From NCBI GenBank assembly GCA_965237805.1, contig OZ250153.1:224001-288000 (forward strand): a DNA stretch of 64,000 nt, in the 5' to 3' direction. Origin of the DNA: Gammaproteobacteria bacterium. GTDB taxonomy: Bacteria > Pseudomonadota > Gammaproteobacteria > JABABF01. Below, piece after piece: positions 5,031-54,700 of this stretch; within the stretch, counting starts at the first letter, position 1; the number at the start of each line of letters is the position of its first letter. Position numbers and translations under genes: made by a program. Below the pieces are notes generated by a model, which saw only the letters and a list, made by a program, of their open reading frames with translations, ran no database searches and was not told where the DNA came from.

Positions 5031-5099
5031 GGAGCGGGTCGTGGTGCCGAGGGTGTGTACGCGCCGCCTATTCTACTGCGCCGCGCCTCAGAGAGTGCT

Positions 5100-34519: not shown

Positions 34520-37500
34520 TCACCACGGGTAGTCGAACCAAGCACGCACCATACTCTCAACATTCAGCAGCTCGTCCACATCGCGTTTGATGACCGCAGC
34601 GCGACCGCAGGCGGTCGGCGAATCCAATGCCAAGCGCACCGCATACAGCACCCGAGCGTCGGCGGTTTCCACCGCACCGATACCCACACGCACCGCGCCC
34701 AATCCCTGCGCGAGCAGCCGCTTGGCGGTGCGCTCGGCACTCTCAATATTGGCATAGGCCGCCACCTGCACATACCAGCCGCGGTTGCCGCGCACTGTGT
34801 CCAAGCAAGCACAAACCGATGCGCTCGGTCGCTTGCAGGGGGATGGTATCGAGGCGGAAACCAGCTGACGGCGCGACGGCGCTGACTGTTCAGTCCGCTC
34901 AGCGCGCTCGACCCGCTGCTCCCGGCGCCGACTCGCCGTCTGCGGGTCGCGGCGCGGCGCTGTCACAGCAGCGCTGGCATCATTGAAGCGATAGCTCAGC
35001 CCGGCACCGGCAAAAGCGGCACCAGCATCGTAGTCTTCGTAGAAGATTTTCAGCGCCAAACCGCGGGCCGGGTTACCAGCCAGATCCAACTCCATGCCCA
35101 GCCCCCAGTAGAGGTCATCGTCGTTCTTGACAGCTACCGCAAACTGTCTGGACTTGGCATCGCCGCTGCGCCAGCCCAGCGCAGCATAGGGCGACCAGCG
35201 GCGATCGCGGCCATAGGGAAACCAATTCACCCCCGCCCCGGCAGCCGTTTGCTCGACGCCGCCGCAGGCGGTCGCATTGCAGACTCTGGACTCGCCCAAA
35301 TCCGCCCAAAAACCTTCCAACCACAGATCTTCCAAGGTGATGACAAAAAGCGGCAGCTTGAATGGCAGCGCGTAGTCGACGCCAACACGGTAGGCAAAAT
35401 CCTCCTGATCATCCAAGCGGAAAGTGTTGCTCTGTAGTGAGGGCTTCAAAAAACTCTGCCCCACCGCTCCGCTGATGCCGAAGTCGAGGGCAGCGGCCGT
35501 CGCAGGCAGGCTCAGGCACAGCGAGAGCAAGGCCGCACCAGCCATCGCAACGCCGCGCCGATGCCACTGGCCGCTGCGGCCAAGGCTCAGGAGCAACATC
35601 AGTGCGAGCAGCGCCAACCAAGGCAGCCCAATCGTGCCGCCACCGCCGCGGAAAACCACCACCTCGCTACCGCTCGTCGCCTGCATTCCTATCGGGCTAA
35701 AGGAGTCGGACGTGCCGCTGACATGCACACAGCCGCCATTGGACAGAGCGCCGACCGCCAGCGACAGCAGCGGGAGATAGGCCGCATCGCCGGGTGCCGG
35801 GCAAGCCCTGCCGTTCGTTCCAGCGACGCTGAGATACGGCGAGAATGTCACCGTATTGACCACGATTACCGTCGCGCTGCTCGTGCCGGGGCCACTGTCG
35901 ATCGTGATCGTGCGCTGGCTGGTATCCACCTCGCACCAACTGGCCGTCGCCGCACTGGGGCAAGTGCTGGAATAGTGATACAACTTGTCAGTGCTGATCG
36001 CTCCATCGACCGAGAACACAAAGTTGATCAAGTCGCCAGCCGAAAAACAGGCTGCGCTATCACCGCAACTGAAGGACACATCGAGTACCAAGTTATCGAC
36101 GAGGCTCACTGGCAGCGGCGCGATGCCCAGTGCGGCAAACTCGCTCAGCGGCACACGGGGCGAGTTTGCCCCCGAGCGCCGCGCCGCGATATCACCCAGA
36201 CGCAGGATGATCCCCGGCGCAACGAGCATAAAGTGCGCGTTGGCTGTGCCGGCGCTGTCGCTGAACGGCAGGGCCGAGTTGATCAATGCCAAGCCGGGCG
36301 CTTCCAGCTCATCCGGAATCAAGTCGCCGTCGCTGTCCAACTGGCCAACGCTAAAGACTCGCTGCAAACTCTCGCCCGCGCTCACGGCCCCAATGCGATA
36401 CACCGCCGCGTTGCTGCCGAAAACACTGCCTGCCACACTGTAAGTGCCAGCCAACGCCACCTCCGGCGTCGCTGGTGTCGAAGAGCCGAGCACGCTGAGT
36501 GTCCAAGTGCGAGTGCCATTCACAACGCTGCCAGACACCGAGAACTCCACCCCCGCCGCAGGATCGGCAATGCTCTGCAACAGCGCGCTGCTCCCGCTCT
36601 GGCGCAGCTGGATCACCGGTGCATAGGCCGCCACCGCACGCAGCGCTGGCTGATAAACAATGCTATAAGTCGTGCTCGCCGAACAGCTGGCAGAAAAAGA
36701 GCACAGCGACACCAGATCGCGAGACGAAAGGTCCAGCTGCACGGTGGCCGCCACCGTCAGGGTCGAGGTGCTCACCGTGTAGCCCACCGCTTGCTCCACA
36801 GCACCCGACAGCGACAGGCTGCTCGCCATCAGCGCCAAACCAGAGCTGCTGAGACTCAGCGCCACTGCCCCGTCACCGTCGGGCTGCGCTCCCAATAACT
36901 GCAATCTCATGCTGCCCGAGCCGCCCGCTATCACCGAGAGATCGCCGCCTACCGACAATATTGGCCGCAGAGCCAAGCGCCAGATCACCGCATCGCTCGC
37001 TGCGCTGCCAGCGGACAGCCAGTGTGTGCCCGACACATAGTTGTGGCTGTCCGCTGCTGGCAGCACCCCACCCTGATAGACACCAGCGCTGATATGCACC
37101 ACCGAGTCCAGCGGCAGGCTCAGCGACGCCGTGCCAGAAGTGAATGAGGCAAAGTCCGTCAGCACACCGCGCGCGTTTTGGCGCGGCAAAACCGTCGCCG
37201 CGCTACTCAACTCGTCGCGACGACCGTAGTACAGCTCCACCACATCTGGCAAGCCGTCGCTATCGGCATCCGTCGCCGCAGAGGCCCCTGTCGTGTCCGA
37301 CAGATCGCTGTTCAGATAGGCTTCCAAACTGTCCGACAGGCCATCGCCGTCCGTGTCACAGCTGCTGGCAGCGCCCGGGCAGGCCACTGTCAAACCGCCA
37401 ACAGGCATGAAATCGTATTCCAAATCGTCCGACAAGCCGTCGTTATCGGCATCTGTCAGCGAGAATGCCGCCGTGTTCAGCAGCACTGGTGCGCTGGTGG

Positions 37501-40177
37501 CCGTACTGCCACCAGCATCCTCCACTACGAGGAAGACGCAATAGGCCGTGCCCTGCGAGAGCGCGTTGAGCTGCCCGCTACCGCCGGTGGCGCTCAAACT
37601 CAGCTGGGAGGACATCGTCGTGATCGAGGCGATGGCGCAAGTCGTGCCAGTGTGGAAGGCCAGCCAATAACTGGCGGCCGTGTCGATGGCCGTCGCCGCC
37701 TCGCTCAGCTGCGCGCGATCGCTGGCCAATTCGCTGAACAGCAGGGTCGCCGAATAAGCCCGCAACTCGGCGCTGTCCACCGATAGACACGGGCTCGCCA
37801 CACTGTCCAAGTCGCCATCGCAGATGCTCGGGGGCACCACCACTCCCAACACCGTGAAACTCGTCGGAATGGGCAGGACGATTTCAGCAGTCGCCGCGAT
37901 CGTTGCCGTGGACATGATTGCCAGCGTCAATGACGTACTCGATAGCCCCGTCGGCAGAGCGGGCAGCATGACGTTCAGCGAAAATTCGATCAGCGGGACG
38001 CTGATGCCACCAATCTGCACTGTATTCGCCGGTGCCGTGAGCGTCACAGCGCCAGCGACGGGCGCGCTGCAAGGAGAAGAGGAAGACTGGCATCCCAAAA
38101 CCCCAGACACCGCGAGCTCAATGGTGGCGGACACATCATCTAAGTCGTAGACATCAAGGGTAGAAGCCGCGTCGAGCCGCAGCTCGGCGACACTTAGATA
38201 ACTGCCCGCAAACACATAGCTGCGGTTGTGCAACAGCATCGCGGGATCGACCACGCTACCACCAAAACTGGCCGAGACCGCATCCCGCGTCGCCAACCGG
38301 CTGCCCGTCACATCCATACTGAGCGTGAGATTGACCGTGTTGCTGCCAGCAGAGCTGGGGGCGGGAATGCTCGCGACCACCGTGCCATGATCCTGCGAAG
38401 AATAATAGCTAATCTCTCTGACATAGCCAAAAGTGCCCGCCTCAGATGACAGCACACAAAAGGTCTCCGCCGGGGTCTCCGCCACGCCGCTGCAATTGGC
38501 AAAGCCTGCGTTGAACCCTGTATTCAGCGCCGAAGAGCTCAGGTCTTGGTTCAGATCGAACTGCAAATTCCTATCTCGAGCGGAGATAGTCAAGCGCAAA
38601 GTATTCCGCTCGATATTGGCACCATCTCGATAGCGATAGGTGGCCGCATACGGCGTGCTAATACCATCACCAGTCAGATCAATGGTGGCAAAGGAAGCAG
38701 TGACAGTCGTGATGGACTCCAAACGCAGCTCGGTGCCCACCACCGCCATGGTGACGCTGCCGACGGTGTTTGTTGCCGTCGCAAAGCGGCTGCTGATGAC
38801 ACCGGCAGGTTGCCCAATCTCTGAGGGGCGCAGCTCCAGCATCAGCCGCGAGCCGTCGACGATATCGTTGATATTCAGAGTGCTGACGACGTCAATCACC
38901 ACCGCAAAGACCCCCAAACGCTCGCTGCCACCGTCGGCGATGACCAGCGGCGTCGCCAACCCTAGGACAACAGTCGCTTGGCTGGAAGCGCGCGCTAGGA
39001 GCCGTAAACCTACTATCCCCGTCGCCAGTGCAGGGCCCACAGCAGCGCCCCCGGCATCGATGCGGAAAAGGTGGTAATTCAGACTTGGCACAGCCCGCTG
39101 GGAGTCAGCGGGGAGGACTAAAGCACTATAAAATGGCGTAATCGCCTCACTGCCCACACTCACACGCAGCGTCACTGTACTGATGCGGGTGACAACACCA
39201 TCACCACCACCATCGGCGATGGCCAGCGCCAATATCGCTGTCAAGCTGCTCGACACGCTGTCGAGCTCGATGCTGGTGCCATAGATCGCGCTCGTGAGAT
39301 CGCTGATCGTCGCCGCATCGTTGGCTGTCGCCACCGTAGCCGTCAGCGTTGAGCCCAATACCGTGAGCACAGCGGTTGACGCACCGCTGGTATAACTGTC
39401 AACAAAGGGATCTAGCAAGTCGGTGCCATCGCCGTCAGGCACCTCGATCGCATGATAGAGCTGGCGTGCGTAGCTGGGCGCAAGCTCCAAATTGACTGCA
39501 CGCAAGCGCAGCGTCAACAAATCCGGGTACGTGCACAACTTGCACTGCAACCTGGAATTAGGATTCGACGGCGCTTTCAGAACCAATGTGTTCTGCCACA
39601 AACTCACCATATCCGTCTCACCACTCGGGGTGATCGTGACCAGCGTCGTCGAGTAGCTCGCCGACGCAAAGATATCCTCAAGCGATCCCTCACCGCTGAG
39701 CGACACGCTGGCATCCGTGCTGAAACTGCGCGCCGTCGTATCCGTCAGCTCGCCTGTGCCCGCAATGATCGCACCGCCTGCGCCCTCCACCACAAAACCA
39801 GCTGCCACACCGTGCCCATCTGCGCCCGGCACCGAATACCACGACAGCGCCATGCCCCAAGTCAGCACACCATTGGGTGTGCCCGCCCCCAATACAGTAT
39901 CACCAGCATCGGTGGAGACATGTTGCAAGCCGATATCGAGCTCAAAAGCACTGTTGTCCAAGACCGAAAAAGTGCTGTCGGTGGCAGTGGTCACCGAATC
40001 TTGGGTCGCCGATGCCCCCAATAGCAACCGATAAGTGGATGCCTCGGCTGTGCCAGACATCAATCCCAAGCACAATGCCAACGCCAACGCCAATGCCCGT
40101 GTCAGCGCCAGTGAAAAAACCGCGGCCTGCGGTGCCAATAAATCGTGGCAGCTGCGCCCTAACTGTTGCAGTTTCAT
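34520..40177 (-). CDS. Giant secreted/surface protein, paralog 1 (~1885 aa): beta-rich passenger, TSP3-like Ca-binding repeats, internal GlyGly-CTERM-like TM segment, OMP beta-barrel, SPOR domain
   Basis: GGAGA RBS before MKLQQ; signal peptide ending AEA; DxDxDGLxD repeats; GGGGTIGLPWLALLALMLLL; barrel ending GAGLSYRF; WYVQVAAY SPOR-like C-terminus. Confidence 0.85.
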   Translation of the reverse strand: MKLQQLGRSCHDLLAPQAAVFSLALTRALALALALCLGLMSGTAEASTYRLLLGASATQDSVTTATDSTFSVLDNSAFELDIGLQHVSTDAGDTVLGAGTPNGVLTWGMALSWYSVPGADGHGVAAGFVVEGAGGAIIAGTGELTDTTARSFSTDASVSLSGEGSLEDIFASASYSTTLVTITPSGETDMVSLWQNTLVLKAPSNPNSRLQCKLCTYPDLLTLRLRAVNLELAPSYARQLYHAIEVPDGDGTDLLDPFVDSYTSGASTAVLTVLGSTLTATVATANDAATISDLTSAIYGTSIELDSVSSSLTAILALAIADGGGDGVVTRISTVTLRVSVGSEAITPFYSALVLPADSQRAVPSLNYHLFRIDAGGAAVGPALATGIVGLRLLARASSQATVVLGLATPLVIADGGSERLGVFAVVIDVVSTLNINDIVDGSRLMLELRPSEIGQPAGVISSRFATATNTVGSVTMAVVGTELRLESITTVTASFATIDLTGDGISTPYAATYRYRDGANIERNTLRLTISARDRNLQFDLNQDLSSSALNTGFNAGFANCSGVAETPAETFCVLSSEAGTFGYVREISYYSSQDHGTVVASIPAPSSAGSNTVNLTLSMDVTGSRLATRDAVSASFGGSVVDPAMLLHNRSYVFAGSYLSVAELRLDAASTLDVYDLDDVSATIELAVSGVLGCQSSSSPCSAPVAGAVTLTAPANTVQIGGISVPLIEFSLNVMLPALPTGLSSTSLTLAIMSTATIAATAEIVLPIPTSFTVLGVVVPPSICDGDLDSVASPCLSVDSAELRAYSATLLFSELASDRAQLSEAATAIDTAASYWLAFHTGTTCAIASITTMSSQLSLSATGGSGQLNALSQGTAYCVFLVVEDAGGSTATSAPVLLNTAAFSLTDADNDGLSDDLEYDFMPVGGLTVACPGAASSCDTDGDGLSDSLEAYLNSDLSDTTGASAATDADSDGLPDVVELYYGRRDELSSAATVLPRQNARGVLTDFASFTSGTASLSLPLDSVVHISAGVYQGGVLPAADSHNYVSGTHWLSAGSAASDAVIWRLALRPILSVGGDLSVIAGGSGSMRLQLLGAQPDGDGAVALSLSSSGLALMASSLSLSGAVEQAVGYTVSTSTLTVAATVQLDLSSRDLVSLCSFSASCSASTTYSIVYQPALRAVAAYAPVIQLRQSGSSALLQSIADPAAGVEFSVSGSVVNGTRTWTLSVLGSSTPATPEVALAGTYSVAGSVFGSNAAVYRIGAVSAGESLQRVFSVGQLDSDGDLIPDELEAPGLALINSALPFSDSAGTANAHFMLVAPGIILRLGDIAARRSGANSPRVPLSEFAALGIAPLPVSLVDNLVLDVSFSCGDSAACFSAGDLINFVFSVDGAISTDKLYHYSSTCPSAATASWCEVDTSQRTITIDSGPGTSSATVIVVNTVTFSPYLSVAGTNGRACPAPGDAAYLPLLSLAVGALSNGGCVHVSGTSDSFSPIGMQATSGSEVVVFRGGGGTIGLPWLALLALMLLLSLGRSGQWHRRGVAMAGAALLSLCLSLPATAAALDFGISGAVGQSFLKPSLQSNTFRLDDQEDFAYRVGVDYALPFKLPLFVITLEDLWLEGFWADLGESRVCNATACGGVEQTAAGAGVNWFPYGRDRRWSPYAALGWRSGDAKSRQFAVAVKNDDDLYWGLGMELDLAGNPARGLALKIFYEDYDAGAAFAGAGLSYRFNDASAAVTAPRRDPQTASRRREQRVERAERTEQSAPSRRQLVSASIPSPCKRPSASVCACLDTVRGNRGWYVQVAAYANIESAERTAKRLLAQGLGAVRVGIGAVETADARVLYAVRLALDSPTACGRAAVIKRDVDELLNVESMVRAWFDYPW

Positions 40178-40367
40178 GGAATGTCTCCAGTGGCTAAACG
40201 CTAGATGGGCTGGCGTGCCTGCAAGAGCGCAACGACGATCACCAGCTCTTGCCAAGCGCCTATTCTAACAAATTCAGTATGCTATTCGCAATACGGCGAT
40301 GCGTAGCAAACGCGATGCTGTGCCAAAGTCGCGATCTGCCTCTGAGCGAGGAGCCTGTAGCGCTCGC

Positions 40368-41627
40368 TCAGAGGCCGGCGCGCTGCTCGATGCGCACGAT
40401 GATATTGAGCTCTTCGTCGATCAGGGCCGGAATGCCAGCCACCACGACACCAGAAAAGGTGCCGTTCTTGATCAAGGTGCGGAAGGACGCCGTAAAGCCC
40501 AGTGTGCGGAACATCATCAAGGCATCCGTTTGGTCGACATCGCCGTCGAGATCAATGTCCAAGACACTGTTGGAGCTGGCCTCAAGAGCCTCAATACGCT
40601 CAATGATATTGAGCTCTTCGTCGATCAGGGCCGGAATGCCAGCCACCACGACACCAGAAAAGGTGCCGTTCTTGATCAAGGTGCGGAAGGACTCCGTAAA
40701 GCCCAGCGTGCGGAACATCATCAAGGCATCCGTTTGGTTGACCGTGTCGCTGAGATCGATATCGAGCTGCAGGAGGTCGAATACCAGCAGTTCGACGGTG
40801 CCGCTCAGCGTGCCATCGCTCACCGTCAACACGATCGTGCTGCCGTCGCTCAGCCCCTCCAGCTGCAGGCTGAGGCTGGTGGAGGATGCCTGCGACAAGG
40901 CGCTCAGAGTCCCCATCGAGATGCTCACTGTCACCGTGTTGGGAAGCACGTAGCCCGAATCCACATTCGCGGCGGCATCGACAGCAAATATCTGCACCGT
41001 CAAGGGCGTCTCTACAAGTACCGGGGACGGCGCTGTCAGGAGCAAGGCGACGGGCAGCACGATCAACATGGTCTGTGCCACCGCGCTCAGCGAGCCGTCG
41101 ACCACTGTCAAGCTCAGCAGCTGGGCGCTAACTGCCCCGCTGAGAGACAAGCTCAGACTGCTGGCCGTGCGCGCGTGCTCCATCAGCGCACCGGATGAGG
41201 GCGTGACCGTCGCCGCGGGCGACAGGCGGTAGTCGCTGTCCTCGTTGTCGTCGTTGTCCACGCCGCGCACGCTCAGCGCAAAAGTACTATGGCCGCTCAC
41301 AGTGGCCGGCAAGCCGAGGCTCAGGCGGCGCGTTTGCACAGTGAACTCTAAGTCTAGCTGCCCCGACAGCACACCGCTGCTGAGGCTGAGGCGCAAGCTG
41401 GTGTTTTCCACCACCCCACCCCCAAGCCGCACCGTCAAGGCATTGCTCGTGCTGGCATCCACCACCCAGCGCACGGGGCCCGGCACCACTTGCGCCAGCG
41501 CTGGCGGGATGGCAGCCAGTGCCAAGGCCAAGCTCAGAGCCGATGCCATGAGCCAGAGGATGCCGTTGCCGTGCGTGGGGCAAGCCCTGCTGGCGCTGCG
41601 GGGCTCAGAGGGGGCGAATCGATGCAA
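40368..41627 (-). CDS. Secreted Ig-like protein with a tandem dockerin/EF-hand-like C-terminal repeat
   Basis: Signal peptide ending ALA-Q, Ser/Thr/Val-rich beta sequence, two copies of LDIDLxxxVxQTDALMMFRTLGF...; start uncertain. Confidence 0.75.
   Translation of the reverse strand: MHRFAPSEPRSASRACPTHGNGILWLMASALSLALALAAIPPALAQVVPGPVRWVVDASTSNALTVRLGGGVVENTSLRLSLSSGVLSGQLDLEFTVQTRRLSLGLPATVSGHSTFALSVRGVDNDDNEDSDYRLSPAATVTPSSGALMEHARTASSLSLSLSGAVSAQLLSLTVVDGSLSAVAQTMLIVLPVALLLTAPSPVLVETPLTVQIFAVDAAANVDSGYVLPNTVTVSISMGTLSALSQASSTSLSLQLEGLSDGSTIVLTVSDGTLSGTVELLVFDLLQLDIDLSDTVNQTDALMMFRTLGFTESFRTLIKNGTFSGVVVAGIPALIDEELNIIERIEALEASSNSVLDIDLDGDVDQTDALMMFRTLGFTASFRTLIKNGTFSGVVVAGIPALIDEELNIIVRIEQRAGL
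40401..40760. repeat. Intragenic tandem repeat with 204-bp period (two copies)
   Basis: gatattgagctcttcgtcgatcagggccggaatgcc... occurs at 40401 and 40605 and stays near-identical for about 130 bp. Confidence 0.9.
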
Positions 41628-41749
41628 TGGCAGCTGCCAGTGGGTGGACGGGGATCATTTTAAGCGATGCGAGCGCTGCGATAGCGGGACTGCGGGCGGC
41701 GCGACTGCGGTGCGATGCGCCGGACACACGACACTCGCTAGGCACGCTG

Positions 41750-42190
41750 CTATGTACTGCTGCTGGTGGCACCGCCGTCGGTGGCGGGCACCAAGCGCAG
41801 GGAGGCAGAGTTGATGCAATAACGCAGGCCAGTGGGTGGCGGGCCATCGTTGAAGACATGCCCCAGATGGGCATCGCAGACCGCGCAACGCAGCTCCTCG
41901 CGCGCCATGCCGTGGCTGGTGTCGCGGTGATTGCTCAGGCGAGCTGCTGGTGCCGGGGAATGGAAGCTGGGCCAACCCGATCCCGAATCAAATTTGCCAG
42001 CCGAGTCGAATAGGGGCGCATCACAACAGCGGCAACGGTAAGCACCGGCTGTCTTAGTCTCCCAATAGCAGCCGCTGAAAGCTGGCTCTGTCCCCCCTTG
42101 ACGGCAGATCCGATAGCTGTTGTCGTCCAGCTGTGAACGCCACTGCTCGTCGCTTAGGGCACGCGGGTCGCCAGCGGGAAAACTCTCCAT
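41750..42190 (-). CDS. msrB: Peptide-methionine (R)-S-oxide reductase
   Basis: [42 protein letters not shown]. Confidence 0.96.
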
Positions 42191-42352
42191 AGGCAGAATT
42201 ATACGCATAAGCACTGCGCCTCTTGCGGCTGCCAGCTGCTCGGCGACACCATACAATAAGCGTGGCTGAGGGCGGCTCGGCAACGGCTCGGGCGTCGCAG
42301 CCAGCCGCAGCGCAGCTCCCCGGCCCCACCACCGCAGAGCGCAAGCCAAACC

Positions 42353-43582: not shown

Positions 43583-43790
43583 GGGGGCGAGGCGTCGATC
43601 AAAGCCTGGGCAGCAGCTCACTTAGCCCAAGCTGCGGGGGTTAACGGGGGCTTGACAGTGGCGGAAAAGTGCAATAATTTCAAGAAAATCTCATGATAAA
43701 CGCCCTTCTGACATGGTCGCAGACTAATCCAGCTCCCAGCTGGGCGTTGCTTGCGGTTTTCACAGTGATCGCTACCCGTTTTATTGATCG

Positions 43791-44290
43791 ATGGATCGAT
43801 GGTTTGTTGAGCACAACACCGAGCATCGCGAGCTGGCACAGCTACATAGCAAAATGGTGCCAGCACTAAGCGAGCTCATTGGGTTGGCACCATTGCTAAG
43901 GCGCATTGAAGCACAATTTGTTGCTCGGGATGCCAGCGCGTTTGTCAGCGCGCCCGGCCCCTTGTCTCTTGGCGAAAAAGGGCAGGAAGTCAGCAAGGCG
44001 ATCAAAGCGGACGACTTGGTGGCATGAGCCTCCCCGATTCTGGAAGACTCTGTCAATCTCCCTGAGCCAGCTGCGACAGCCTACGATCTACCAAGCAAAA
44101 GTACGCAGGGCTGGGAGTTGTTTGGTCTGATGGAGGCCGCAGGGAGAGACCAATCAGAGGAATATCAAAAGTATTTTAAACTGCTAAAAGATGTTGCTTA
44201 GAAGAATGGAGCAACGCAAACAAGCATACTCGCGATAGTCGGCATCGCGAGACCGCATTTTGGACGAGCGGGGCATGGACATCATGCAAG
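43791..44290 (+). pseudogene. Decayed hypothetical gene, lower GC than its surroundings
   Basis: Reading frame continues with protein-like sequence through in-frame TGA (44025) and TAG (~44199): PLSLGEKG..SKAIKA..LVA*ASPIL..AYD..LKDVA*KNG..ILAIVGI, then RDRIL in a shifted frame. Confidence 0.5.
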
Positions 44291-44342
44291 CGGATCAAAG
44301 CTTGCCGGCTGACAGCCAGTCAGCAGAATAATTGCTCTGTTG

Positions 44343-44897
44343 GCTGGCTATCACCAAGCACTGCCCGCTCCACCGCCACCCACACCCTCGTCGCTTGCCC
44401 CGTTGCCGCTCGGCCGGTGCAGACTGGCCCCTAGGCTTGGCAACAACAGTCACCCGCTGATTGTCGCTCTATTTGCTTCTGCCAGCTCAGTCCCTCAGCC
44501 ACTCATAGATCATCGTCTTGCCGCTCATGGCGGTAAAGAGCGCATGGGTCTATGGCTGCCAGCGCACAGCACCCAGCATTGAGCCTTGATGCGAACTCAA
44601 TAGCGCCCGCAGTGCTGCTGGCTATCACCAAGCACTGCCCGCTCCACCGCCACCCACACCCTCGCCGCTTGCCCTGTTGCCGCTCGGCCAGTGCAGACTG
44701 GCCCCTAGGCTGGGCAACAACAGTCCCCCGCTGATTTGCCCGCTCTATTTGCTTCTGCCAGCTCAGTCCGTCAGCCCCTCATAGATCATCGTCTTGCCGC
44801 TCGGCGGTAAAGAGCACATGGGTCTATGGCTGCCAGCGCACAACACCCAGCATTGAGCCTTGATGCGAACTCAATATCGCCCGCAGTGCTGCTGGCT
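44343..44897. repeat. Tandem direct repeat, two imperfect copies of a 274-bp non-coding unit
   Basis: gctggctatcaccaagcactgcccgctcc starts at 44343 and 44617; gctggct recurs at 44891. Confidence 0.95.
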
Positions 44898-44938
44898 CCC
44901 GTTGTGGTAGCTGTCGTTGGCAGCGCAGTCATGCCCCT

Positions 44939-46153: not shown

Positions 46154-46174
46154 GGTGGCGGCAAAGCCATGGCT

Positions 46175-46480
46175 TCAGCTGTGCGACGCTGCGGGGCCGC
46201 CCTTGCGGATCAAAAAATACAGCTTGCGGTCGCGCTGTTGCGAGGGCTGCGAGGCGCTGAGCAATTGATGCCCCAAATGGTGGCAAAATCTCTCCACATC
46301 GCGCTGGGTCGAGGGATCGGTGGCACAGAGCCGCAACAGCTCGCCGCGACGCAGGCGACGGATCTCGCGGTGCAATAGCATCAGTGGCTCGGGGCAGGAC
46401 AGACCGCAGACATTGAGCTGGTGCACCGCCTGCGCCGTTCCATCGCTGCTGTCGGACTGTTTGTTGGCTGCGCTACTCAT
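46175..46480 (-). CDS. tusA: Sulfurtransferase TusA
   Basis: GLSCPEPLMLLH, ATDPSTQRD..FC. Confidence 0.93.
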   Translation of the reverse strand: MSSAANKQSDSSDGTAQAVHQLNVCGLSCPEPLMLLHREIRRLRRGELLRLCATDPSTQRDVERFCHHLGHQLLSASQPSQQRDRKLYFLIRKGGPAASHS

Positions 46481-46560
46481 TGACTGTAGCTCGCCAAAAG
46501 TGCGGCGTCGAGCTGGCGCAAGCCCCGCCACAGACCACAGATTTTAGTGGCTACTCGAAC

Positions 46561-49500
46561 TCACCACGGGTAGTCGAACCAAGCACGCACCACACTCTCA
46601 ACATTCAGCAGCTCGTCCACATCGCGTTTGATGACCGCAGCGCGACCGCAGGCGGCCGGCGAATCCAATGCCAAGCGCACCGCATACAGCACGCTACCAT
46701 TATCCCTGTCCACCGCGCCGATGCCGACCCGCACCGCGCCGAAGCCCTGTGCCAAGAGCTTCTGGGCGGTACGCTCGGCGGCCAAGACATTGGCATAGGC
46801 CGCCACCTGCACATACCAGCCTTGATGGCCGCGCACTGTGTCCAAGCAAGCACAAACCGATGCGCCCGGTCGTGTGCAAGGAGAGCTCAGCGCCGAGATA
46901 TAGCTGGGCCGCTGGCTGGTGGGCTCGGGCCGCGTGCGCTCTGGGCGACGGGGGAGCTCCTCCCGACGGCGTGCGCTCGCCTGTGGGCGGCGGCTGGGCG
47001 CGGCATCCTCGGCAGCGCCATTGAAGCGATAGCTCAGCCCGGCACCGGCAAAAGCGGTGCCGAGGTCGTAATCTTCGTAGAAAATTTTCAGCGCCAAACC
47101 GCGGGCCGGGTTACCAGCCAGATCCAACTCCATGCCCAGCCCCCAGTAGAGGCCATCGTCGTTCTTGACAGCTACCCGCCACTGTCTGGACTTGGCATCG
47201 CCGCTGCGCCAGCCCAGCGAAGCATAGGGTGACCAGCGGCGATCGCGGCCATAGGGAAACCAATTCACCCCCGCCCCGGCAGCCGTTTGCTCGACGCCGC
47301 CGCAGGCGGTCGCATTGCAGACTCTGGACTCGCCCAAATCCGCCCAAAAGCCTTCCAACCACAGATCTTCCAAGGTGATGACAAAGAGCGGCAGCTTGAA
47401 TGGCAGCGCGTAGTCGACGCCAACACGGTAGGCAAAATCTTCCTGATCATCCAAGCGGAAAGTGCTGCTCTGTAGTGAGGGCTTCAAAAAACTCTGCCCC
47501 ACCGCTCCGCTGATGCCGAAGTCGAGGGCAGCGGCCGTCGCAGGCAGGCTCAGGCACAGCGAGAGCAAGGCCGCACCAGCCATCGCAACGCCGCGCCGAT
47601 GCCACTGGCCGCTGCGGCCAAGGCTCAGGAGCATCATCAGTGCGAGCAGCGCCAACCAAGGCAGCCCAACCGTGCCGCCACCGCCGTGGAAAACCACCAC
47701 CTCGCTACCGCTCGTCGCCTGCAATGCCAGCGGGCTCAAGGAGTCGGACGTAGCGCTGACATGCACACAGCCGCCATTGGACAGAGCGCCCGCCACCAGC
47801 GACAGCAGCGGGAGATAGGCCGCATCGCCGGGTGCCGGGCAAGCCCTGCCGCTCGTTCCAGCGACGCTGAGATACGGCGAGAATGTCACCGTATTGGCCA
47901 CGATTACCGTCGCGCTGCTCATGCCGGGGCCACTGTCGATCGTGATCGTGCGCTGGCTGGTATCCACCTCGCACCAACTGGCCGTCGCCGCACTGGGGCA
48001 AGTGCTGGAATAGTGATACAACTTGTCAGTGCTGATCGCTCCATCGACCGAGAACACAAAGTCGAGCAAGTCGCCAGCCGAAAAACAGGCTGCGCTATCA
48101 CCGCAACTGAAGGACACATCGAGTACCAAGTTATCGACGACGCTCACTGGCAGCGGCGCGATGCCCAGTGCGGCAAACTCGCTCAGCGGCACACGGGGCG
48201 AATTTGCCACCGGGCGCTGCGCCGCGATATCACCCAGACGCAGGATGATCCCCGGCGCAACGAGCATAAAGTGCGCGTTGGCTGTGCCGGCGCTGTCGCC
48301 GTACGGCAGGGCCGAGTTGACCAATACCAAGCCGGGCACTTCCAGCGTATCTGGAATCAAGTCGCCGTCGCTGTCCAACTGGCCAACGCTAAAGACTCGC
48401 TGCAAACTCTCGCCCGTGCTCTCGGCCCCAATGCGATACACCGCCGCGTTGCTGCCGAAAACACTGCCTGCCACACTGTAAGTACCAGCCAACGCCACCG
48501 ACGGCGTCGCTGGTGTCGAAGAGCCGAGCACGCTGAGTGTCCAAGTGCGAGTGCTATTCACAACGCTGCCAGACACCGAGAACTCCACCCCCGCCGCAGG
48601 ATCGGCAATGCTCTGCAACAGCGCGCTGCTCCCGCTCTGGCGCAGCTGGATCACCGGTGCATAGGCCGCCACCGCACGCAGCGCTGGCTGATAAACAATG
48701 CTATAAGTCGTGCTCGACGAACAGCTGGCAGAAAAAGAGCACAGCGACACCAGATCGAGAGACGCATTGTCCAGCTGCACGGTGGCCATCACCGTCAGGG
48801 TCGAGGTGCTCACCGTGTAGCCCACCGCTTGCTCCACAGCACCCGACAGCGACAGGCTGCTCGCCATCAGCGCCAAACCAGAGCTGCTGAGACTCAGCGC
48901 CACTGCCCCGTCACCGTCGGGCTGCGCTCCCAATAACTGCAATCTCATGCTGCCCGAGCCGCCCGCTATCACCGAGAGATCGCCGCCTACCGACAATACT
49001 GGCCGCAGCTCCAAGCGCCGGATCACCGCATCGCTCGCTGCGCTGCCAGAGGACAGCCAGTGTGTGCCCGACACATAGTTGTGGCTGTCCGCTGCTGGCA
49101 GCACCCCACCCTGATAGACACCAGCGCTGATATGCACCACCGAGTCCAGCGGCAGGCTCAGCGACGCCGTGCCAGAACTGTTGGTGAATGAGGCAAAGTC
49201 CGTCAGCACACCGCGCGCGTTTTGGCGCGGCAAAACCGTTGCCGCGCTACTCAACTCGTCGCGACGACCGTAGTACAGCTCCACCACATCTGGCAAGCCG
49301 TCGCTATCGGCATCCGTCGCCGCAGAGGCCCCTGTCGTGTTCGACAGATCGCTGTTCAGATAGGCTTCCAAACTGTCCGACAGGCCATCGCCGTCCGTGT
49401 CACAAGCAGCGTCCGGGCACACTGTCAAACCGCCAACAGGCATGAAATCGTATTCCAAATCATCCGACAGGCCGTCGTTATCGGCATCGGTCAGCGAGAA

Positions 49501-52500
49501 TGCCGCCGTGTTCAGCATCACCGGGGCGCTGTACACCGTACTGCCACCGGCATCGCGCACTGCGAGGAAGACGCAATAGGCCGTGCCCTGCGAGAGCGCG
49601 TTGAGCTGCCCGCTACCGCCGGTGGCGCTCAAACTCAGCTGGGAGGACATCGCCGTGATCGAGGCGATGGCGCAAGTCGTGCCAGTGTGGAAGGCCAGCC
49701 AATAACTGGCGGCCGTGTTGATGGGCGTCGCCGCCTCGCTCAGCTGCGCGCGATCGCTGGCCAATTCGCTGAACAGCAGGGTCGCCGAATAAGCCCGCAA
49801 CTCGGCGCTGTCCACCGATAGACACGCGTTCGCCACACTGTCCAAGTCGCCATCGCAGATGGTCGGGGGAACCAGATCGGCGCTGAGGGTGAATTCGCTC
49901 GGCGCGGGGATGCTGCTGTAGGCGCTCCCAGACTGGAGGGCGATCGTCAAACTCAGGGTGCTGCTGAGCAGCCCGCTCGGCAACTGCGCAAAAGCAAAAC
50001 CTCCACTGGAGGGTGCCGTGAAACTGATCACGCCGCGCTCAGCAGCAGCAGCCACCGTCACCATCGCTGTCGTCGTCGCACTCAGCGGAGAGAGCGGCGT
50101 ACAGCCGCCGCCATCGCTGGTGCAGGATAGCTGCGGTGTCACTGTCAGCGATAGTCCGGATGGATCGCGATCGTAGACCTTGGCCGTGGAATCGTTGAAA
50201 GCGGGGCTAGTGCCGCTCAAATCAACGTTCAGAAAAGCGTGATAAGTGCCACTAAAGCTGTAACTGGCGTCGTGGATCAGCGAGCTGCCCGCCACCGCGA
50301 TGCCCGTGCTGCTGTTCCGCGCCGTCACCGCCGCCAAGGTCTCCAAACTGTCGGCGCTAACATTCATGGTGACCGTCACTTGGTTCTCAGCAGTCGTGAA
50401 CACCCTTTGACGACCATCAATCGGGGAGAAATACAGATTCCGGACATGGCCAGATGACAGGATCTCCTCCTGGTGCTCCACATCCGTATCACCGCTCACA
50501 ACGAGAGCCTGCGCAGACAGATCCGCGTTCAGATCAAGCTGCCCGCTGGCATCTCGGCTACGCAGGTTCAACACAACAACATTGGCAGTCGACGCCGCGC
50601 CGCTGCCGGCGCGGAAGTCGGTTTGCACCGCAAAACCTGCAGCGGTGCTGCCAGTGACGCTGGGGGCACTGCCAACACTGACGCTGTCGATCGCCACCGT
50701 CGTGCCAATCACCTCCATGCTGAGCCTGTTCTCCAGCGTGCCGCCACTGAAAGCGCCACTGCCGAAGACGCCAGCAGTTGCCGGTGATACCCGCAGCCGC
50801 AGCTGCCCTGCATCCACCGCATCGCTACTGAGCAATGCGCTGTGGTTGGCCACCGCAGCCGTCAACAGCAGCTGGGCCGTGCCGCCCTCGGCAATGCTCA
50901 GCGGCGTGCCGAGCGTCAGGCGAATCATCTGCTCGCCAGAGGACACGCGCGCCAAGGCCGTGACTGTCGCCGCCAGCACTGCCCCCGTGGCGTTGCCAGC
51001 GGCATCCGCCGCATACAGATTCAAAGTCAGCGCCGGCACCACACCGCGCGTCAAAGCGCTGTCGATGCCAGCAACGATGGGTGCAATGCCGCTGTCTTCA
51101 GCCAACAGACTCAATAACACGGAACTGATCGCGACACCCATACTGTCCCCCGCACCCTCGGCAAAACTCAGCGCCATCACCCGCTGCTCTGTGCTCCCCA
51201 AGACATTGCTCAGCGTCGCCTGGCCGATGTCGATCAAACTCACCGTCGTGGGCACCACTCCCAACACCGTGAAACTCGTCGGAGTAGGCACTGTCAGGGC
51301 GATGCCACCAGTCGCCGTGGACATGATTGCCAGCGTCAATGGCGTGTCCAATAGCCCCATCGGCAGAGTGGGCAGAGTGATGGCCAGCGAAAATTCGATC
51401 AGCGGGACGTCGATGCCGTCAATCTGCACTGTATTCGCCGGTGCCGTGAGCGTCACAGCGCCAGCGACGGGCGCGCTGCAAGAAGAATCTAACTCGCATC
51501 CCAAAACCCCAGACACCGCGAGCTCAATGGTGGCGGACACATCATCTAAGTCGTAGACAGGAAGGATAGTAGCCGGGCCGGTCTGCAGCTCGGCGAAACT
51601 CAGATAACTGCCCTCAAACATATAGCTGCGGTCGTGCAACAGCATCGCGGGCTCGACCGCGCCACCACCAAAACTGGCCGAGACCGCATCATGCGTCTCC
51701 AACCGGCCGCCCGTCACATCCATACTGAGAGTGAGATTGACCGTGTTCTCGAAGACAACATGGGGGGAGGGAATGCTCGCGACCACCGTGCCATGATCCT
51801 GCAAAGAATAATAGCTAATCTCTCTGACATAGCCAAAAGTGCCCGCCTGCAATGACACCGCACAACGGGTCTGCCCCCCGCCGCCGCTACAACCGGAAAA
51901 ACCTGTGTTGAACCCTGCATTCAGCGCCGAAGAGCTCAGGTCGCTGTCCAGATCGAGCTGCCCTTTACTATCTCGACTGACCACAGTCAAGCGCAAAATA
52001 TTCTGCGCGACAGTGACACCACCATCTCGGTAGCGATAGGTGGCCGCATACGGCGTGCCAATACCATCACCAGTCACATCAATGGTGGCAGAGGAAGGGA
52101 CAGTCGGCATGGAGTTCAAACGCAGCACGGTGCCCACCACCGCCATGGTGACGCTGCCGACGGTGTTTGTTGCCGTCGAAAAGCGGCTGCTGATGACACC
52201 GGCAGGCTGCACAATCTCTGAGGGGCGCAGCTCCAGCATCAGCTGCGAGCCGTCGACGATATCCGCTCTACTCTGCAGCCCATCCAAGGAATCCGGAAAC
52301 GCAAAGAGCCCCAAACGCTCGCTGCCACCGTCGGCGATGACCAGCGGCGACACCAACGTGACAACAAGCGATTGGGTGGGTCTGCGCACACTGAGCGAGT
52401 CAGCAGTCAGCGTCGCCAGTGCAGCACCCACAGCAGTGCCCCCGGCATCGATGCGGTGAAGGTTGAAATCCAGACTTGGCACAGCATGCTGGGAATTTTC

Positions 52501-53559
52501 GGGGAGGGCTAAAGCACTATAAAGTGGCGTGACCACCGCACTGCCCACACCCACACGCAGCGTCATTGAACTGATGTGGGTGTCAATGCCATCACCACCA
52601 CCATCGGCGATGGCCAGCGCCCATATCGGTGTCGCGCTACTCGACGCGGTGTCGAACTCGATGCTGGGGCCATAGATCTCGCTCGTGATATCGCTGATCG
52701 TCGCCGCATCGTTGATCGTCGCCACCGCAGCCGTCAGCGTTGAGCTCAATCTCGTGAGCGTAGCAGCTGACACATTGTTGGTATAACTGTCAACAGAGGC
52801 AACCAGCAAGTCTGAGCCATCGCCGTCAGGCACCCTGACCGCATGATAGAGCTTGCGTGCGTAGCTGGGCGCAGACTCCAGATTGACTGCACGCAAGCGC
52901 AGCGTCAACAAATCCGGGTGCCTGCAAAACTTGCACTGCAACATGGAAGTAGCATTTTGCGCTGCCAGAACCAATGTGTGCTGCCACAAACTCACCATAT
53001 CCGTCTCACCACTCGGGGTGATTGTGACCAGCGTCGTCGAGTAGAGCACAAAAGGAAAGATATCCTCAATCGATCCCCCACCGCTGAGCGACACGCTGGC
53101 ATCCGTGCTGAAACTGCGCGCCGTCGTGGACGTCAGGAATACTGTGCCCGCAATGATCGCACCGCCTGCGCCCTCCACCACAAAACCAGCTGCCACACCG
53201 TGCCCACCAGTGCCCGGCACCGAATACCACGACAGCGCCATGCCCCAAGTTGTCACAAGATTTTCGTCACTCGCCCCCAATGCAAAGTCACCAGCATCGG
53301 TGGAGACATGTTGCAGACCGATATCAAGCTCAAAAGCACTGTTGTCCAAGACCGAAAAAGTGCTGTCGGTGGCAGTGGTCACCGAATCTTGGGTCGCCGA
53401 TACCCCCAATAGCAACCTATAAGTGGATGCCTCGGCTGTGCCAGACATCAATCCCAAGCACAATGCCAACGCCAATGCCCGTGTCAGAGCCAGTGAAAAA
53501 ACCGCGGCCTGCGGTGCCAATAAATCGTGGCAGCTGCGCCCTAACTGTTGCAATTTCAT
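46561..53559 (-). CDS. Giant secreted/surface protein, paralog 2 (2332 aa); same architecture as 34520-40177 plus an extra internal module
   Basis: Long stretches near-identical to paralog 1; about 1.4 kb extra at ~49861-51250. Confidence 0.88.
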   Translation of the reverse strand: MKLQQLGRSCHDLLAPQAAVFSLALTRALALALCLGLMSGTAEASTYRLLLGVSATQDSVTTATDSTFSVLDNSAFELDIGLQHVSTDAGDFALGASDENLVTTWGMALSWYSVPGTGGHGVAAGFVVEGAGGAIIAGTVFLTSTTARSFSTDASVSLSGGGSIEDIFPFVLYSTTLVTITPSGETDMVSLWQHTLVLAAQNATSMLQCKFCRHPDLLTLRLRAVNLESAPSYARKLYHAVRVPDGDGSDLLVASVDSYTNNVSAATLTRLSSTLTAAVATINDAATISDITSEIYGPSIEFDTASSSATPIWALAIADGGGDGIDTHISSMTLRVGVGSAVVTPLYSALALPENSQHAVPSLDFNLHRIDAGGTAVGAALATLTADSLSVRRPTQSLVVTLVSPLVIADGGSERLGLFAFPDSLDGLQSRADIVDGSQLMLELRPSEIVQPAGVISSRFSTATNTVGSVTMAVVGTVLRLNSMPTVPSSATIDVTGDGIGTPYAATYRYRDGGVTVAQNILRLTVVSRDSKGQLDLDSDLSSSALNAGFNTGFSGCSGGGGQTRCAVSLQAGTFGYVREISYYSLQDHGTVVASIPSPHVVFENTVNLTLSMDVTGGRLETHDAVSASFGGGAVEPAMLLHDRSYMFEGSYLSFAELQTGPATILPVYDLDDVSATIELAVSGVLGCELDSSCSAPVAGAVTLTAPANTVQIDGIDVPLIEFSLAITLPTLPMGLLDTPLTLAIMSTATGGIALTVPTPTSFTVLGVVPTTVSLIDIGQATLSNVLGSTEQRVMALSFAEGAGDSMGVAISSVLLSLLAEDSGIAPIVAGIDSALTRGVVPALTLNLYAADAAGNATGAVLAATVTALARVSSGEQMIRLTLGTPLSIAEGGTAQLLLTAAVANHSALLSSDAVDAGQLRLRVSPATAGVFGSGAFSGGTLENRLSMEVIGTTVAIDSVSVGSAPSVTGSTAAGFAVQTDFRAGSGAASTANVVVLNLRSRDASGQLDLNADLSAQALVVSGDTDVEHQEEILSSGHVRNLYFSPIDGRQRVFTTAENQVTVTMNVSADSLETLAAVTARNSSTGIAVAGSSLIHDASYSFSGTYHAFLNVDLSGTSPAFNDSTAKVYDRDPSGLSLTVTPQLSCTSDGGGCTPLSPLSATTTAMVTVAAAAERGVISFTAPSSGGFAFAQLPSGLLSSTLSLTIALQSGSAYSSIPAPSEFTLSADLVPPTICDGDLDSVANACLSVDSAELRAYSATLLFSELASDRAQLSEAATPINTAASYWLAFHTGTTCAIASITAMSSQLSLSATGGSGQLNALSQGTAYCVFLAVRDAGGSTVYSAPVMLNTAAFSLTDADNDGLSDDLEYDFMPVGGLTVCPDAACDTDGDGLSDSLEAYLNSDLSNTTGASAATDADSDGLPDVVELYYGRRDELSSAATVLPRQNARGVLTDFASFTNSSGTASLSLPLDSVVHISAGVYQGGVLPAADSHNYVSGTHWLSSGSAASDAVIRRLELRPVLSVGGDLSVIAGGSGSMRLQLLGAQPDGDGAVALSLSSSGLALMASSLSLSGAVEQAVGYTVSTSTLTVMATVQLDNASLDLVSLCSFSASCSSSTTYSIVYQPALRAVAAYAPVIQLRQSGSSALLQSIADPAAGVEFSVSGSVVNSTRTWTLSVLGSSTPATPSVALAGTYSVAGSVFGSNAAVYRIGAESTGESLQRVFSVGQLDSDGDLIPDTLEVPGLVLVNSALPYGDSAGTANAHFMLVAPGIILRLGDIAAQRPVANSPRVPLSEFAALGIAPLPVSVVDNLVLDVSFSCGDSAACFSAGDLLDFVFSVDGAISTDKLYHYSSTCPSAATASWCEVDTSQRTITIDSGPGMSSATVIVANTVTFSPYLSVAGTSGRACPAPGDAAYLPLLSLVAGALSNGGCVHVSATSDSLSPLALQATSGSEVVVFHGGGGTVGLPWLALLALMMLLSLGRSGQWHRRGVAMAGAALLSLCLSLPATAAALDFGISGAVGQSFLKPSLQSSTFRLDDQEDFAYRVGVDYALPFKLPLFVITLEDLWLEGFWADLGESRVCNATACGGVEQTAAGAGVNWFPYGRDRRWSPYASLGWRSGDAKSRQWRVAVKNDDGLYWGLGMELDLAGNPARGLALKIFYEDYDLGTAFAGAGLSYRFNGAAEDAAPSRRPQASARRREELPRRPERTRPEPTSQRPSYISALSSPCTRPGASVCACLDTVRGHQGWYVQVAAYANVLAAERTAQKLLAQGFGAVRVGIGAVDRDNGSVLYAVRLALDSPAACGRAAVIKRDVDELLNVESVVRAWFDYPW

Positions 53560-53786: not shown

Positions 53787-54700
53787 TCAATAGATCGCTT
53801 CCAAATACGGGGTGTAGCTGCTACGCGTGGATAGCTGTACCACTGCGGCCACAAAGCGTTCCGCCACCACATCGATTTCCGGGCCAACGATGCTCGCCGC
53901 CTCAAGGGACAGGGCAGCTACCGACACCATCAGGGTTGAAGCTGCTGTGGTCGCTCTGCGGCCAGTAGCGCAGCGACAGTGTGGCGATGTGATTGGCACT
54001 CGAAGTGCTGGACAGCAGCGGTGCCACCACGCGCCCGAGATCAGTATTGATCGTCAGCAGATCCCCCAGATCGCTGAAGTCGACATCGCTGTCCACAACG
54101 CCCGCGTCATTCTCGCCCTGCAGCGTATCAGTCAATGCTGCGCCGCCGTCCGCGCTGCGTGCCACCACCGTGGTCGAGGAGAAGTTTGCCCGCAAGGCTA
54201 GGCGCGTGGCCACCACATCCACACTGAGCTCCAGACTGCCAGAGCGCGAGCCGTCCATCACTGTCAGCAGCACTGACTCACCGTCGCTGAGCCCGCTCAG
54301 GCTCAGCGTGATCGTGTTTGCTGTCCGTGCGGCGAGCTCGTTGAGCGTCCCCACCGAGGACAGCACGGTCGCCGAGGCAGGCAGGACATAGTTGCTATCC
54401 AGCTCGCCAATATTGGTCTCGCCCGGCACCGTCAACACGAAGCTCTCGCCCGCCACCACCGTGCTCTTCAGCGAAAAGCTGCTGTTCTCGGCCACTTGGT
54501 AGCTGGCAGTGGTGCCGCTGGGCAGGCATTGGAAGTCTGGCCAATGAGCCCTCCGCTCCCTCGAAGGACAGCGTATCCGCATAGGGCAGCACCACGCCTT
54601 GATAGGCCGCGGTCGTCGTGGCATCGGCGATGGGCGATGCCGCCAGTGCGACGGCTGTGGCCAACGCTGTCAACAAGCCACCGAAAAGCGAGCCCCGCAC
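53787..54700 (-). pseudogene. Frameshifted secreted Ig-like protein related to 40368-41627
   Basis: Signal peptide in the 54395-54700 frame; SNYVLP..VGTL..LSLSGLSDG..LTVMDGSRSG in the 53902-54624 frame matches SGYVLP..MGTL..LQLEGLSDG..LTVSDGTLSG of the partner at 40.8-41.0 kb; tail in a third frame. Confidence 0.65.

Follow-up and report, generated by a model that had tools for sequence, protein, structure and literature searches.

Two giant gammaproteobacterial genes with a candidate polyprotein layout: an adhesin-like passenger, an internal membrane hairpin and an OmpA-like barrel ending in a SPOR domain

The nearest likeness in print to the genes considered here is MXAN_5598 of Myxococcus xanthus, in which an internal MYXO-CTERM sorting tag separates a large adhesin region from an outer-membrane barrel that carries an OmpA domain. 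Its authors remarked that it resembles TraA and TraB combined, perhaps through gene fusion, and proposed that its N-terminal part is processed; the account is a bioinformatic remark on a single protein, made in the Discussion (PMC11980579). TraA, which carries a MYXO-CTERM tag, and the OmpA-like TraB are encoded in Myxococcus by open reading frames (ORFs) that overlap by 4 bases, and the two act together and share a mutant phenotype (PMC3325183). Two giant genes of comparable layout, here called copies A and B, lie in a stretch of 64,000 nucleotides from a Gammaproteobacteria bacterium (GenBank assembly GCA_965237805.1, contig OZ250153.1, positions 224,001 to 288,000 of the forward strand); this whole stretch is referred to below as the window. 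Each gene encodes, in a single frame, a large adhesin-like passenger, a putative membrane hairpin that opens with a Gly-rich motif, and an OmpA-like barrel followed by a SPOR domain, and each is probably a polyprotein that is cut into two products.

Compared by description, MXAN_5598 and the window proteins have much in common: one ORF, an adhesin region, an internal tripartite tag, an outer-membrane barrel and a peptidoglycan-binding domain. The MXAN_5598 gene also adjoins cell-division genes, which echoes the septum-seeking SPOR domain of the window proteins. The two come from different phyla, however, and they differ in the wall-binding domain (OmpA in MXAN_5598, SPOR in the window) and in the tag, which in MXAN_5598 is of the MYXO-CTERM type, with an invariant Cys and cut by myxosortase, whereas the window has a Gly motif and no Cys. 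TraA and TraB, as described, form a similar pair, a surface receptor with a sorting tag followed by a partner that has an outer-membrane part and a peptidoglycan-binding domain, but they are two separate proteins of which each window gene looks like the fused counterpart. The NCBIfam TraB model gave no match to the window protein. It did match P0018 and P0025, two relatives that end in an OmpA-type domain, at 120 and 151 bits, which is far below the 700-bit cut-off and covers the TSP3/OmpA end only.

The tag itself recalls the GlyGly-CTERM/rhombosortase system, known from VesB and RssP of Vibrio cholerae, with which, on the published description, the window shares a Gly-rich motif, one helix, a basic tail and a gammaproteobacterial setting (PMC3237569, PMC13393428). 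Rhombosortase is described as cutting after the double glycine (PMC13393428), and the product is thought to be lipid-linked and carried to the surface by type II secretion (PMC13393428, PMC11980579). The window differs in that its signal is internal and its basic tail appears to double as the n-region of a second signal peptide; the terms 'internal', 'fusion' and 'OmpA' do not occur in either the founding GlyGly-CTERM paper (PMC3237569) or the 2026 motif paper (PMC13393428).

Looser likenesses exist. The window proteins resemble the OmpA family in that a flexible linker connects a barrel of 8 strands to a domain that binds the cell wall from the periplasm, and they depart from it in having SPOR in place of the OmpA C-terminal domain and a signal peptide that is internal to a giant protein. 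Classical autotransporters (type Va) likewise encode a passenger and a C-terminal outer-membrane barrel in one gene, but theirs is a 12-stranded barrel with neither hairpin nor second signal peptide before it, and the passenger crosses by way of the barrel and the β-barrel assembly machinery (BAM). The cytochrome b/c1 (fbcH) polyprotein of Bradyrhizobium is a possible, unconfirmed precedent for an internal signal peptide on which nothing below relies. A mechanistic analogy only is provided by hepatitis C virus core-E1, a viral protein of the eukaryotic endoplasmic reticulum, in which signal peptidase cleaves at an internal signal peptide before an intramembrane protease shortens the product that lies upstream (PMC5402940).

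Literature searches on internal signal peptides in bacterial outer-membrane polyproteins and on GlyGly-CTERM with OmpA left the family undescribed apart from the MXAN_5598 remark, and a search on SPOR with an outer-membrane barrel yielded nothing relevant among the top titles and abstract openings. A preliminary description of this DNA, made from the sequence, would have been refuted by an architecture already characterised as a known family; no such family came to light in these searches, although the layout has been remarked on once in print, for MXAN_5598 (PMC11980579). The window family is the Gly-motif counterpart of the MXAN_5598 layout, far larger than that single case, and the window genes are its SPOR variant.

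The region from 34.5 to 53.6 kb of the window is dominated by two minus-strand ORFs, A (34520-40255) and B (46561-53559), which translate without a stop into 1911 and 2332 residues. The elements follow in the same order in both: signal peptide, passenger, Gly-rich motif with hydrophobic helix and basic loop, second hydrophobic segment, barrel, linker and SPOR domain. The DNA at both junctions is in frame. That both giant ORFs are stop-free and carry these elements in this order had been the starting observation of the preliminary description, which placed the junctions at ~35490-35655 and ~47528-47693; the coordinates were derived afresh and checked by translation, and they agree on both counts. 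Copy A most likely starts at ATG 40177 rather than TTG 40255, because the ATG has a Shine-Dalgarno-like GGAG 8-9 nucleotides (nt) upstream, because its context and first residues are identical to those of the copy B start, and because the resulting product of 1885 amino acids (aa) agrees with an 1885-aa database gene call. The features of the two copies, all with coordinates verified by translation, are as follows.

Copy A
34520..40177, minus strand: whole gene, 1885 aa; ORF open to TTG 40255, stop TGA at 34520-34522
40040..40177, minus strand: N-terminal signal peptide, 46 aa, ends A-E-A; read from the sequence, GGAG upstream
35648..40039, minus strand: passenger, 1464 aa; Pfam finds weak TSP3 calcium-binding repeats only
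35552..35647, minus strand: internal sorting-signal-like segment, with GGGG motif, hydrophobic helix 1 and basic loop with R-R
35489..35551, minus strand: second hydrophobic segment, 21 aa, ends A-A-A, a signal-peptidase-I-like site; candidate internal signal peptide or reinsertion helix
34985..35488, minus strand: OmpA-like outer-membrane barrel, 8-stranded, 168 aa, by predicted structure and a profile match below its cut-off
34790..34984, minus strand: linker, basic, Pro/Arg-rich, predicted disordered, with a conserved C-x-C motif at its end
34523..34789, minus strand: SPOR domain, 89 aa, by Pfam and predicted fold

Copy B
46561..53559, minus strand: whole gene, 2332 aa
53428..53559, minus strand: N-terminal signal peptide, 44 aa
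47686..53427, minus strand: passenger, 1914 aa
47590..47685, minus strand: Gly motif, helix 1 and basic loop
47527..47589, minus strand: second hydrophobic segment with A-A-A site
47023..47526, minus strand: OmpA-like barrel
46831..47022, minus strand: basic linker
46564..46830, minus strand: SPOR domain

The open frame across the junction is far beyond chance, and comparison with other genomes confirms that it is no artefact: it is kept in 4 genes from 3 genomes at 31-56% identity and in dozens of distant relatives. One of these relatives, P0004, is a 1660-aa protein encoded on the 2.08-Mb chromosome OZ244031.1, a metagenome-assembled genome (MAG), with the same order of elements and 31% identity over 689 columns from the passenger end to the C-terminus. 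A scan of genome contigs narrowed 66 candidate stretches down to 3 loci. L002 corresponds to the P0004 gene and L003 matches in SPOR only; L001, from another Gammaproteobacteria MAG, contains a 2042-aa ORF with the same order and 56% identity in the module that runs from the hairpin to the SPOR domain. The pdxB gene stands after the L001 gene, as it does after copy B in the window. The P0004 gene (L002:6020-11053, plus strand) has a family-less 303-aa ORF just upstream at 4911-5822 and, directly downstream (L002:11272-21048, plus strand), a giant ORF of at least 3259 aa with FG-GAP repeats that runs off the end of the locus.

The same layout is widely distributed among database proteins. Searched against 1.84 billion representative proteins, the module profile gave 98 matches at E<=0.001, which, by match position, comprise 44 fused proteins (those with at least 100 residues upstream of the hairpin), 41 that look stand-alone, 6 with a short upstream part and 7 that match in SPOR only. 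Each of the 11 representatives whose match extends over the entire module, SPOR included, is fused, and about 13 of the 44 fused proteins end right after the barrel. A search from one OmpA-type relative brought in 111 new proteins, of which 35 match a hidden Markov model (HMM) of hairpin plus barrel, every one of them fused. All told, about 79 database clusters (44 + 35) share the layout, and by their source names they are mostly gammaproteobacterial. The public names are generic: 'OmpA family protein', 'Ig-like domain-containing protein', 'choice-of-anchor D domain-containing protein' and 'internalin, putative'. When 24 long relatives were compared with Pfam, 18 were found to end in an OmpA peptidoglycan-binding domain and 3 in SPOR, and 17 of the 24 passed the outer-membrane barrel family PF13505 (46.9-69.1 bits). 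Their passengers are diverse, with VesB/HYDIN-like immunoglobulin (Ig), invasin D3, Big_1, choice-of-anchor D and TSP3 domains.

A FastTree tree of the barrel columns has 129 rows, some of those classed as stand-alone possibly being gene calls that were cut short. The two forms, fused and stand-alone, are intermingled on it, with 24 changes by parsimony, at least 11 of them forced by well-supported branches, and the barrel part therefore seems to work either way. SPOR-type proteins form a single group of 15 rows with a support of 95. A word-based search with the module among proteins of 187-597 aa found no match, but libraries and sensitivities differ between the searches, and since the profile search did list the 372-aa P0006, this null result is uninformative about stand-alone forms and is not evidence against them.

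The C-terminal part of the module is well characterised by prediction. On the whole proteins the SPOR family PF05036 scores 26.4 and 25.1 bits, and on a fragment 28.9, against a cut-off of 21, while the match to PF13505 (OMP_b-brl) covers the whole profile (2-175 of 175) and begins within the second hydrophobic segment. An AlphaFold2 model of the module, built on a 13-row alignment and with a mean predicted local distance difference test (pLDDT) of 71, contains helices at module residues 15-29 and 38-52, eight main barrel strands between 63 and 228 (block pLDDT mostly 77-91, two blocks 63-64), a disordered stretch at 232-283, and a SPOR fold of the order beta-alpha-beta-beta-alpha-beta at 297-377 with pLDDT 80-92. 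Compared with the PDB by Foldseek, the barrel finds the OmpA transmembrane domain first (template modelling score, TM, 0.63-0.66, probability 1.00), followed by Ail/OmpX, OmpW and NspA, and the SPOR domain finds that of RlpA (TM 0.72-0.75, root-mean-square deviation 2.6-2.8, 27-28% identity). The OMP-like barrel and SPOR domain proposed in the preliminary description are thus folds predicted with good confidence, and its statement that this is not a classical autotransporter agrees with an 8-stranded, OmpA-like barrel and with the lack of a match to any autotransporter family. The autotransporter barrel (PF03797) was tried as a candidate and rejected, there being no Pfam match and a TM of 0.23-0.25 against 0.63-0.66 for OmpA.

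The second hydrophobic segment is, on alignment, the counterpart of a genuine N-terminal signal peptide, because stand-alone OmpA-like precursors align there with their own N-termini: the match starts at about position 40-48 of the module profile and at residues 5-23 of the precursor. Of the rows classed as stand-alone, 38 of 41 begin with Met and a classic signal peptide, the other 3 being fragments that keep part of the hairpin, and these stand-alone barrel relatives are ordinary OmpA-family precursors. The internal segment itself has a basic n-region, a hydrophobic h-region and small residues at -3 and -1. By a crude rule of our own, a small-x-small site follows an uncharged hydrophobic stretch in 44 of 44 fused proteins and in 97 of 649 control windows taken from passengers, and by the same rule Ala occupies -1 in 35 of the 44. 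The resemblance of this n/h/AxA segment to a signal peptide, first noted in the preliminary description, finds support in the alignment and, more crudely, in the site rule, which make it a candidate substrate of signal peptidase I.

Upstream of this segment, alignment of 13 SPOR-type sequences reveals invariant positions at G9, G10 and G14, at three helix leucines and at R37 and R38, and a motif of the Gly-x-Gly type is found at the corresponding place in distant relatives. Both copies have the tripartite shape of GlyGly-CTERM, a Gly-rich motif, a hydrophobic helix (predicted) and a basic cluster. When TIGR03501, the GlyGly-CTERM model, was run on 10 junction fragments, 8 of them, from relatives, gave weak matches of 12.3-19.5 bits. 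The alternative tag, MYXO-CTERM (TIGR03901), was considered and set aside, since the motif has no Cys and scores 8.8-8.9 bits (E about 2) against a 20-bit cut-off. That said, the window's Gly segment does not lie at the extreme C-terminus, the place that defines GlyGly-CTERM, but has about 350 in-frame residues after it. The earlier claim of an internal GlyGly-CTERM therefore holds for the tripartite shape and fails on the curated TIGR03501 score and the extreme C-terminal position, which makes the window tag at most a candidate member of that family. The loop that follows helix 1 consists mostly of 1-8 residues of Arg/Lys across the family. In the three genomes it has about 10, 13 and 44 residues with the frame open throughout, and in the SPOR-type relatives P0014, P0015 and P0016 some hairpin loops reach 24 to about 79 residues, with repeated basic units in them; such loops indicate that it can lengthen without a break in the frame.

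The passenger gives fewer footholds. Apart from weak TSP3 calcium-binding repeats no Pfam family matched it, a PDB sequence search with the whole protein found nothing below E=0.02, and fold prediction of a 330-aa conserved passenger stretch reached a mean pLDDT of 40, which is unusable. A complex prediction of the mature barrel with the last 233 passenger residues scored 0.00, the partner's fold being uncertain, and is evidence neither way. The comparison of the two copies is more informative. They are paralogous, with 87-99% DNA identity over the ORF and none beyond, and B is longer by about 470 passenger residues; by eye, these B-only residues (B 751-1229, window ~49870-51310) resemble an internal duplication of the preceding passenger unit. 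Between the copies, the ratio of nonsynonymous to synonymous divergence (dN/dS) indicates purifying selection on the barrel (0.33) and on the SPOR domain (0.37). Along the passenger it is 0.93, 1.78, 0.56 and 2.30, or about 0.9-2.3 in most of it, which looks like diversifying or relaxed selection, as expected for an exposed surface protein. Synonymous divergence (dS) is itself a mosaic, varying by region from 0.018 to 0.88 (34523-40177 versus 46564-53559), and this variation points to gene conversion between A and B.

We place at roughly 60% the probability that each of these genes encodes a polyprotein in which a two-helix inner-membrane hairpin links a giant adhesin-like passenger to an outer-membrane anchor of its own and which is cut into two products. 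The N-terminal signal peptide would direct the passenger across the inner membrane through Sec. Helix 1, after the invariant Gly motif, would stop transfer, the short basic loop would stay in the cytoplasm, and helix 2 would restart translocation of the C-terminal part, a hairpin topology expected from the positive-inside rule, the established basis for membrane topology. Signal peptidase I would cut after A-A-A at the end of helix 2 and free an OmpA-like mature protein; the cut would be needed because the stretch from helix 2 to the first strand, only about 2-10 residues, could not span the distance to the outer membrane while its other end stayed in the inner one. The freed protein would then comprise an 8-stranded barrel that BAM places in the outer membrane and, beyond a basic linker predicted to be disordered, a SPOR domain that would bind peptidoglycan from the periplasm. 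At the Gly motif an intramembrane sorting protease, most likely rhombosortase, would make the other cut, and the released passenger, probably lipid-modified, would travel to the cell surface as described for GlyGly-CTERM and MYXO-CTERM proteins, the left-over hairpin peptide being degraded. Fusion in this form would ensure 1:1 co-production and co-delivery of a surface protein and its wall-tethered partner, and the replacement of the OmpA domain by SPOR suggests tethering to denuded glycan, that is, to septa or poles. The overall interpretation first put forward for this DNA is thus supported in part: the anatomy, the topology logic and the conservation are strong, while the processing is a proposal and GlyGly-CTERM membership of the tag is tentative.

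Several observations weigh against the polyprotein reading. The hairpin and its conservation are evident in the alignments, and the barrel and SPOR folds are predicted; both cuts, the lipid link, surface exposure and binding between the products are things that we infer, and this applies to every member of the family. TIGR03501 gave no match at E<=10 to window fragments of 41 and 48 aa, and only 1 of the 10 junction fragments passed its cut-off of 15.5 bits. Neither rhombosortase nor type II secretion genes were found among the 71 window ORFs scanned, a set that leaves out 26 overlapping shadow ORFs of at least 140 aa, nor in the flanks of L001 and L002, and a passenger of 1500-3000 residues would be a large cargo for type II secretion. 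The preliminary description had called for HMM scans of barrel and SPOR; SPOR came out above its cut-off, but on the window protein PF13505, although matched over its full length, reached 25.7 bits, below the 28.7 required. The small-x-small count comes from a home-made rule, a few of whose picks miss the site by some residues. Neither gene call for P0004 starts with an obvious N-terminal signal peptide, so that its true start may lie elsewhere or the gene may be disrupted. P0006, of 372 aa, whose barrel columns are the same as those of the P0004 module, has its first residue shortly before helix 2 and could be either a fragment or the product of a gene in its own right.

The alternative that best survives this evidence, though we consider it unlikely, is that processing is only half as extensive: signal peptidase I frees the barrel-SPOR protein, and the Gly helix is a stop-transfer anchor and nothing else, so that the passenger remains anchored in the inner membrane on its periplasmic side, unless a different protease sets it free, with no rhombosortase involved. 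This would fit a window segment to which TIGR03501 gives no score, the lack of rhombosortase in the 71 window ORFs and the L001 and L002 flanks, and a tag that, unlike the defining GlyGly-CTERM trait, is not C-terminal. A plain anchor, however, would have no need of a Gly motif that is invariant before helix 1 in the 13 SPOR-type sequences and recurs in Gly-x-Gly form in distant relatives, and its conservation argues that helix 1 is more than a mere anchor. The weak GlyGly-CTERM matches in 8 of 10 fragments also speak for a sorting signal, and internal sorting tags are said, in the paper on MXAN_5598, to work (PMC11980579). A passenger dN/dS of 0.9-2.3 and the Ig-like, invasin-like and TSP3 domains of the relatives fit surface exposure in place of retention.

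A good deal less probable is a bitopic protein that is never cleaved, the whole chain being held in the inner membrane by its hairpin with the passenger and the barrel-like/SPOR part both periplasmic. Sequence in itself proves no cleavage, and FtsN, DamX and DedD are SPOR proteins with just such an inner-membrane anchor. Yet the C-terminal part is homologous to genuine outer-membrane barrels, is predicted to fold as they do, and has stand-alone relatives with cleavable N-terminal signal peptides at exactly this place; all 44 of 44 fused proteins have a small-x-small site, and the spacer from helix 2 to the first strand is too short for an uncleaved barrel to reach the outer membrane.

It is very improbable that the fusion is spurious, two neighbouring genes having lost the stop between them by a recent mutation or an error in sequencing, and the barrel-SPOR protein being made from an internal ATG at 35545 (A) or 47583 (B). 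A Met does open the second hydrophobic segment in the window, and one lies near the loop in P0004 and P0005; the 372-aa gene call for a P0004-like module could be read in the same sense. Against this, about 79 database clusters and 4 genes from 3 genomes keep the frame open. Of the 44 loops that a crude parser split correctly, 42 have no Met, a count that ignores a Met at the helix edge (as in the window and P0004) and that, being made on protein sequences, does not reveal GTG and TTG starts. No Shine-Dalgarno-like sequence precedes the internal ATG of either copy, while both true starts have GGAG, and no promoter-like site was found near the junction. Internal initiation would in any case leave the long chain still translated through the junction.

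Least probable of all is self-export in the manner of an autotransporter, which the order of passenger first and barrel last in one ORF might suggest, but an 8-stranded barrel of the OmpA/OmpX type is too narrow for a chain, no autotransporter family matches (TM 0.23-0.25 against 0.63-0.66 for OmpA), and the passenger is separated from the barrel by a membrane hairpin and second signal peptide, with a cytoplasmic loop that in some relatives is 24-79 residues long.

The polyprotein reading can be extended from the window to the family, and in this wider form we hold it tentatively, at somewhat less than an even chance. It would then describe a widespread and so far unrecognised bacterial pathway in which cuts of the signal peptidase I and rhombosortase types at the hairpin yield a lipid-anchored adhesin and an OmpA-like wall-tethered partner in 1:1 ratio, with a portable hairpin-barrel cassette placed on unrelated passengers and a SPOR variant that pins its adhesin to septal or polar peptidoglycan. 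If both cuts do occur, the family would offer a clear case of bacterial polyprotein processing through an internal signal peptide, would show C-terminal sorting tags working from inside a chain, and would represent a general delivery route for a surface protein together with a wall-tethered outer-membrane partner. In its SPOR variant the family might, in addition, connect adhesion at the surface with the site of cell division. The family also provides a simple test of what rhombosortase-type proteases require of a substrate, and its generic public names mean that annotation misses that members probably give two products.

Upstream of each giant gene, and on its strand, lies a secreted-looking, family-less ORF, and the L001 gene has a counterpart at L001:12-1217. 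These ORFs may be conserved companions of the system.

40368..41627, minus strand: companion ORF upstream of copy A, 419 aa, secreted-looking, with an internal 204-nt tandem repeat; system membership uncertain
53902..54624, minus strand: companion ORF upstream of copy B, 240 aa; the ORF in front of the L001 orthologue shares 49% identity with it over 128 aa; system membership uncertain

The tandem repeat of the ORF before copy A lies at 40386-40559 and 40590-40763 (91% identity), and the same ORF has a dockerin-like calcium motif just below the Pfam cut-off (22.5 versus 22.9 bits).

The rest of the window, at about 62% G + C, is chromosome of ordinary gammaproteobacterial type, with tricarboxylic acid cycle genes, leuA, ligA, smc, msrB, pdxB, dksA, a membrane pyrophosphatase and a pyrophosphate-dependent phosphofructokinase; no Rfam families or tRNAs were found in the whole window. 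Many gammaproteobacteria have the order smc-zipA-ligA. Here, at 28941-34441 on the minus strand, ligA comes directly after smc with no zipA between them, and copy A stands immediately upstream of smc. Between an aminotransferase gene and pdxB, about 1.3 kb (43600-44930) holds no convincing ORF and includes a pair of direct repeats at 44343-44462 and 44617-44736 that are 96% identical.

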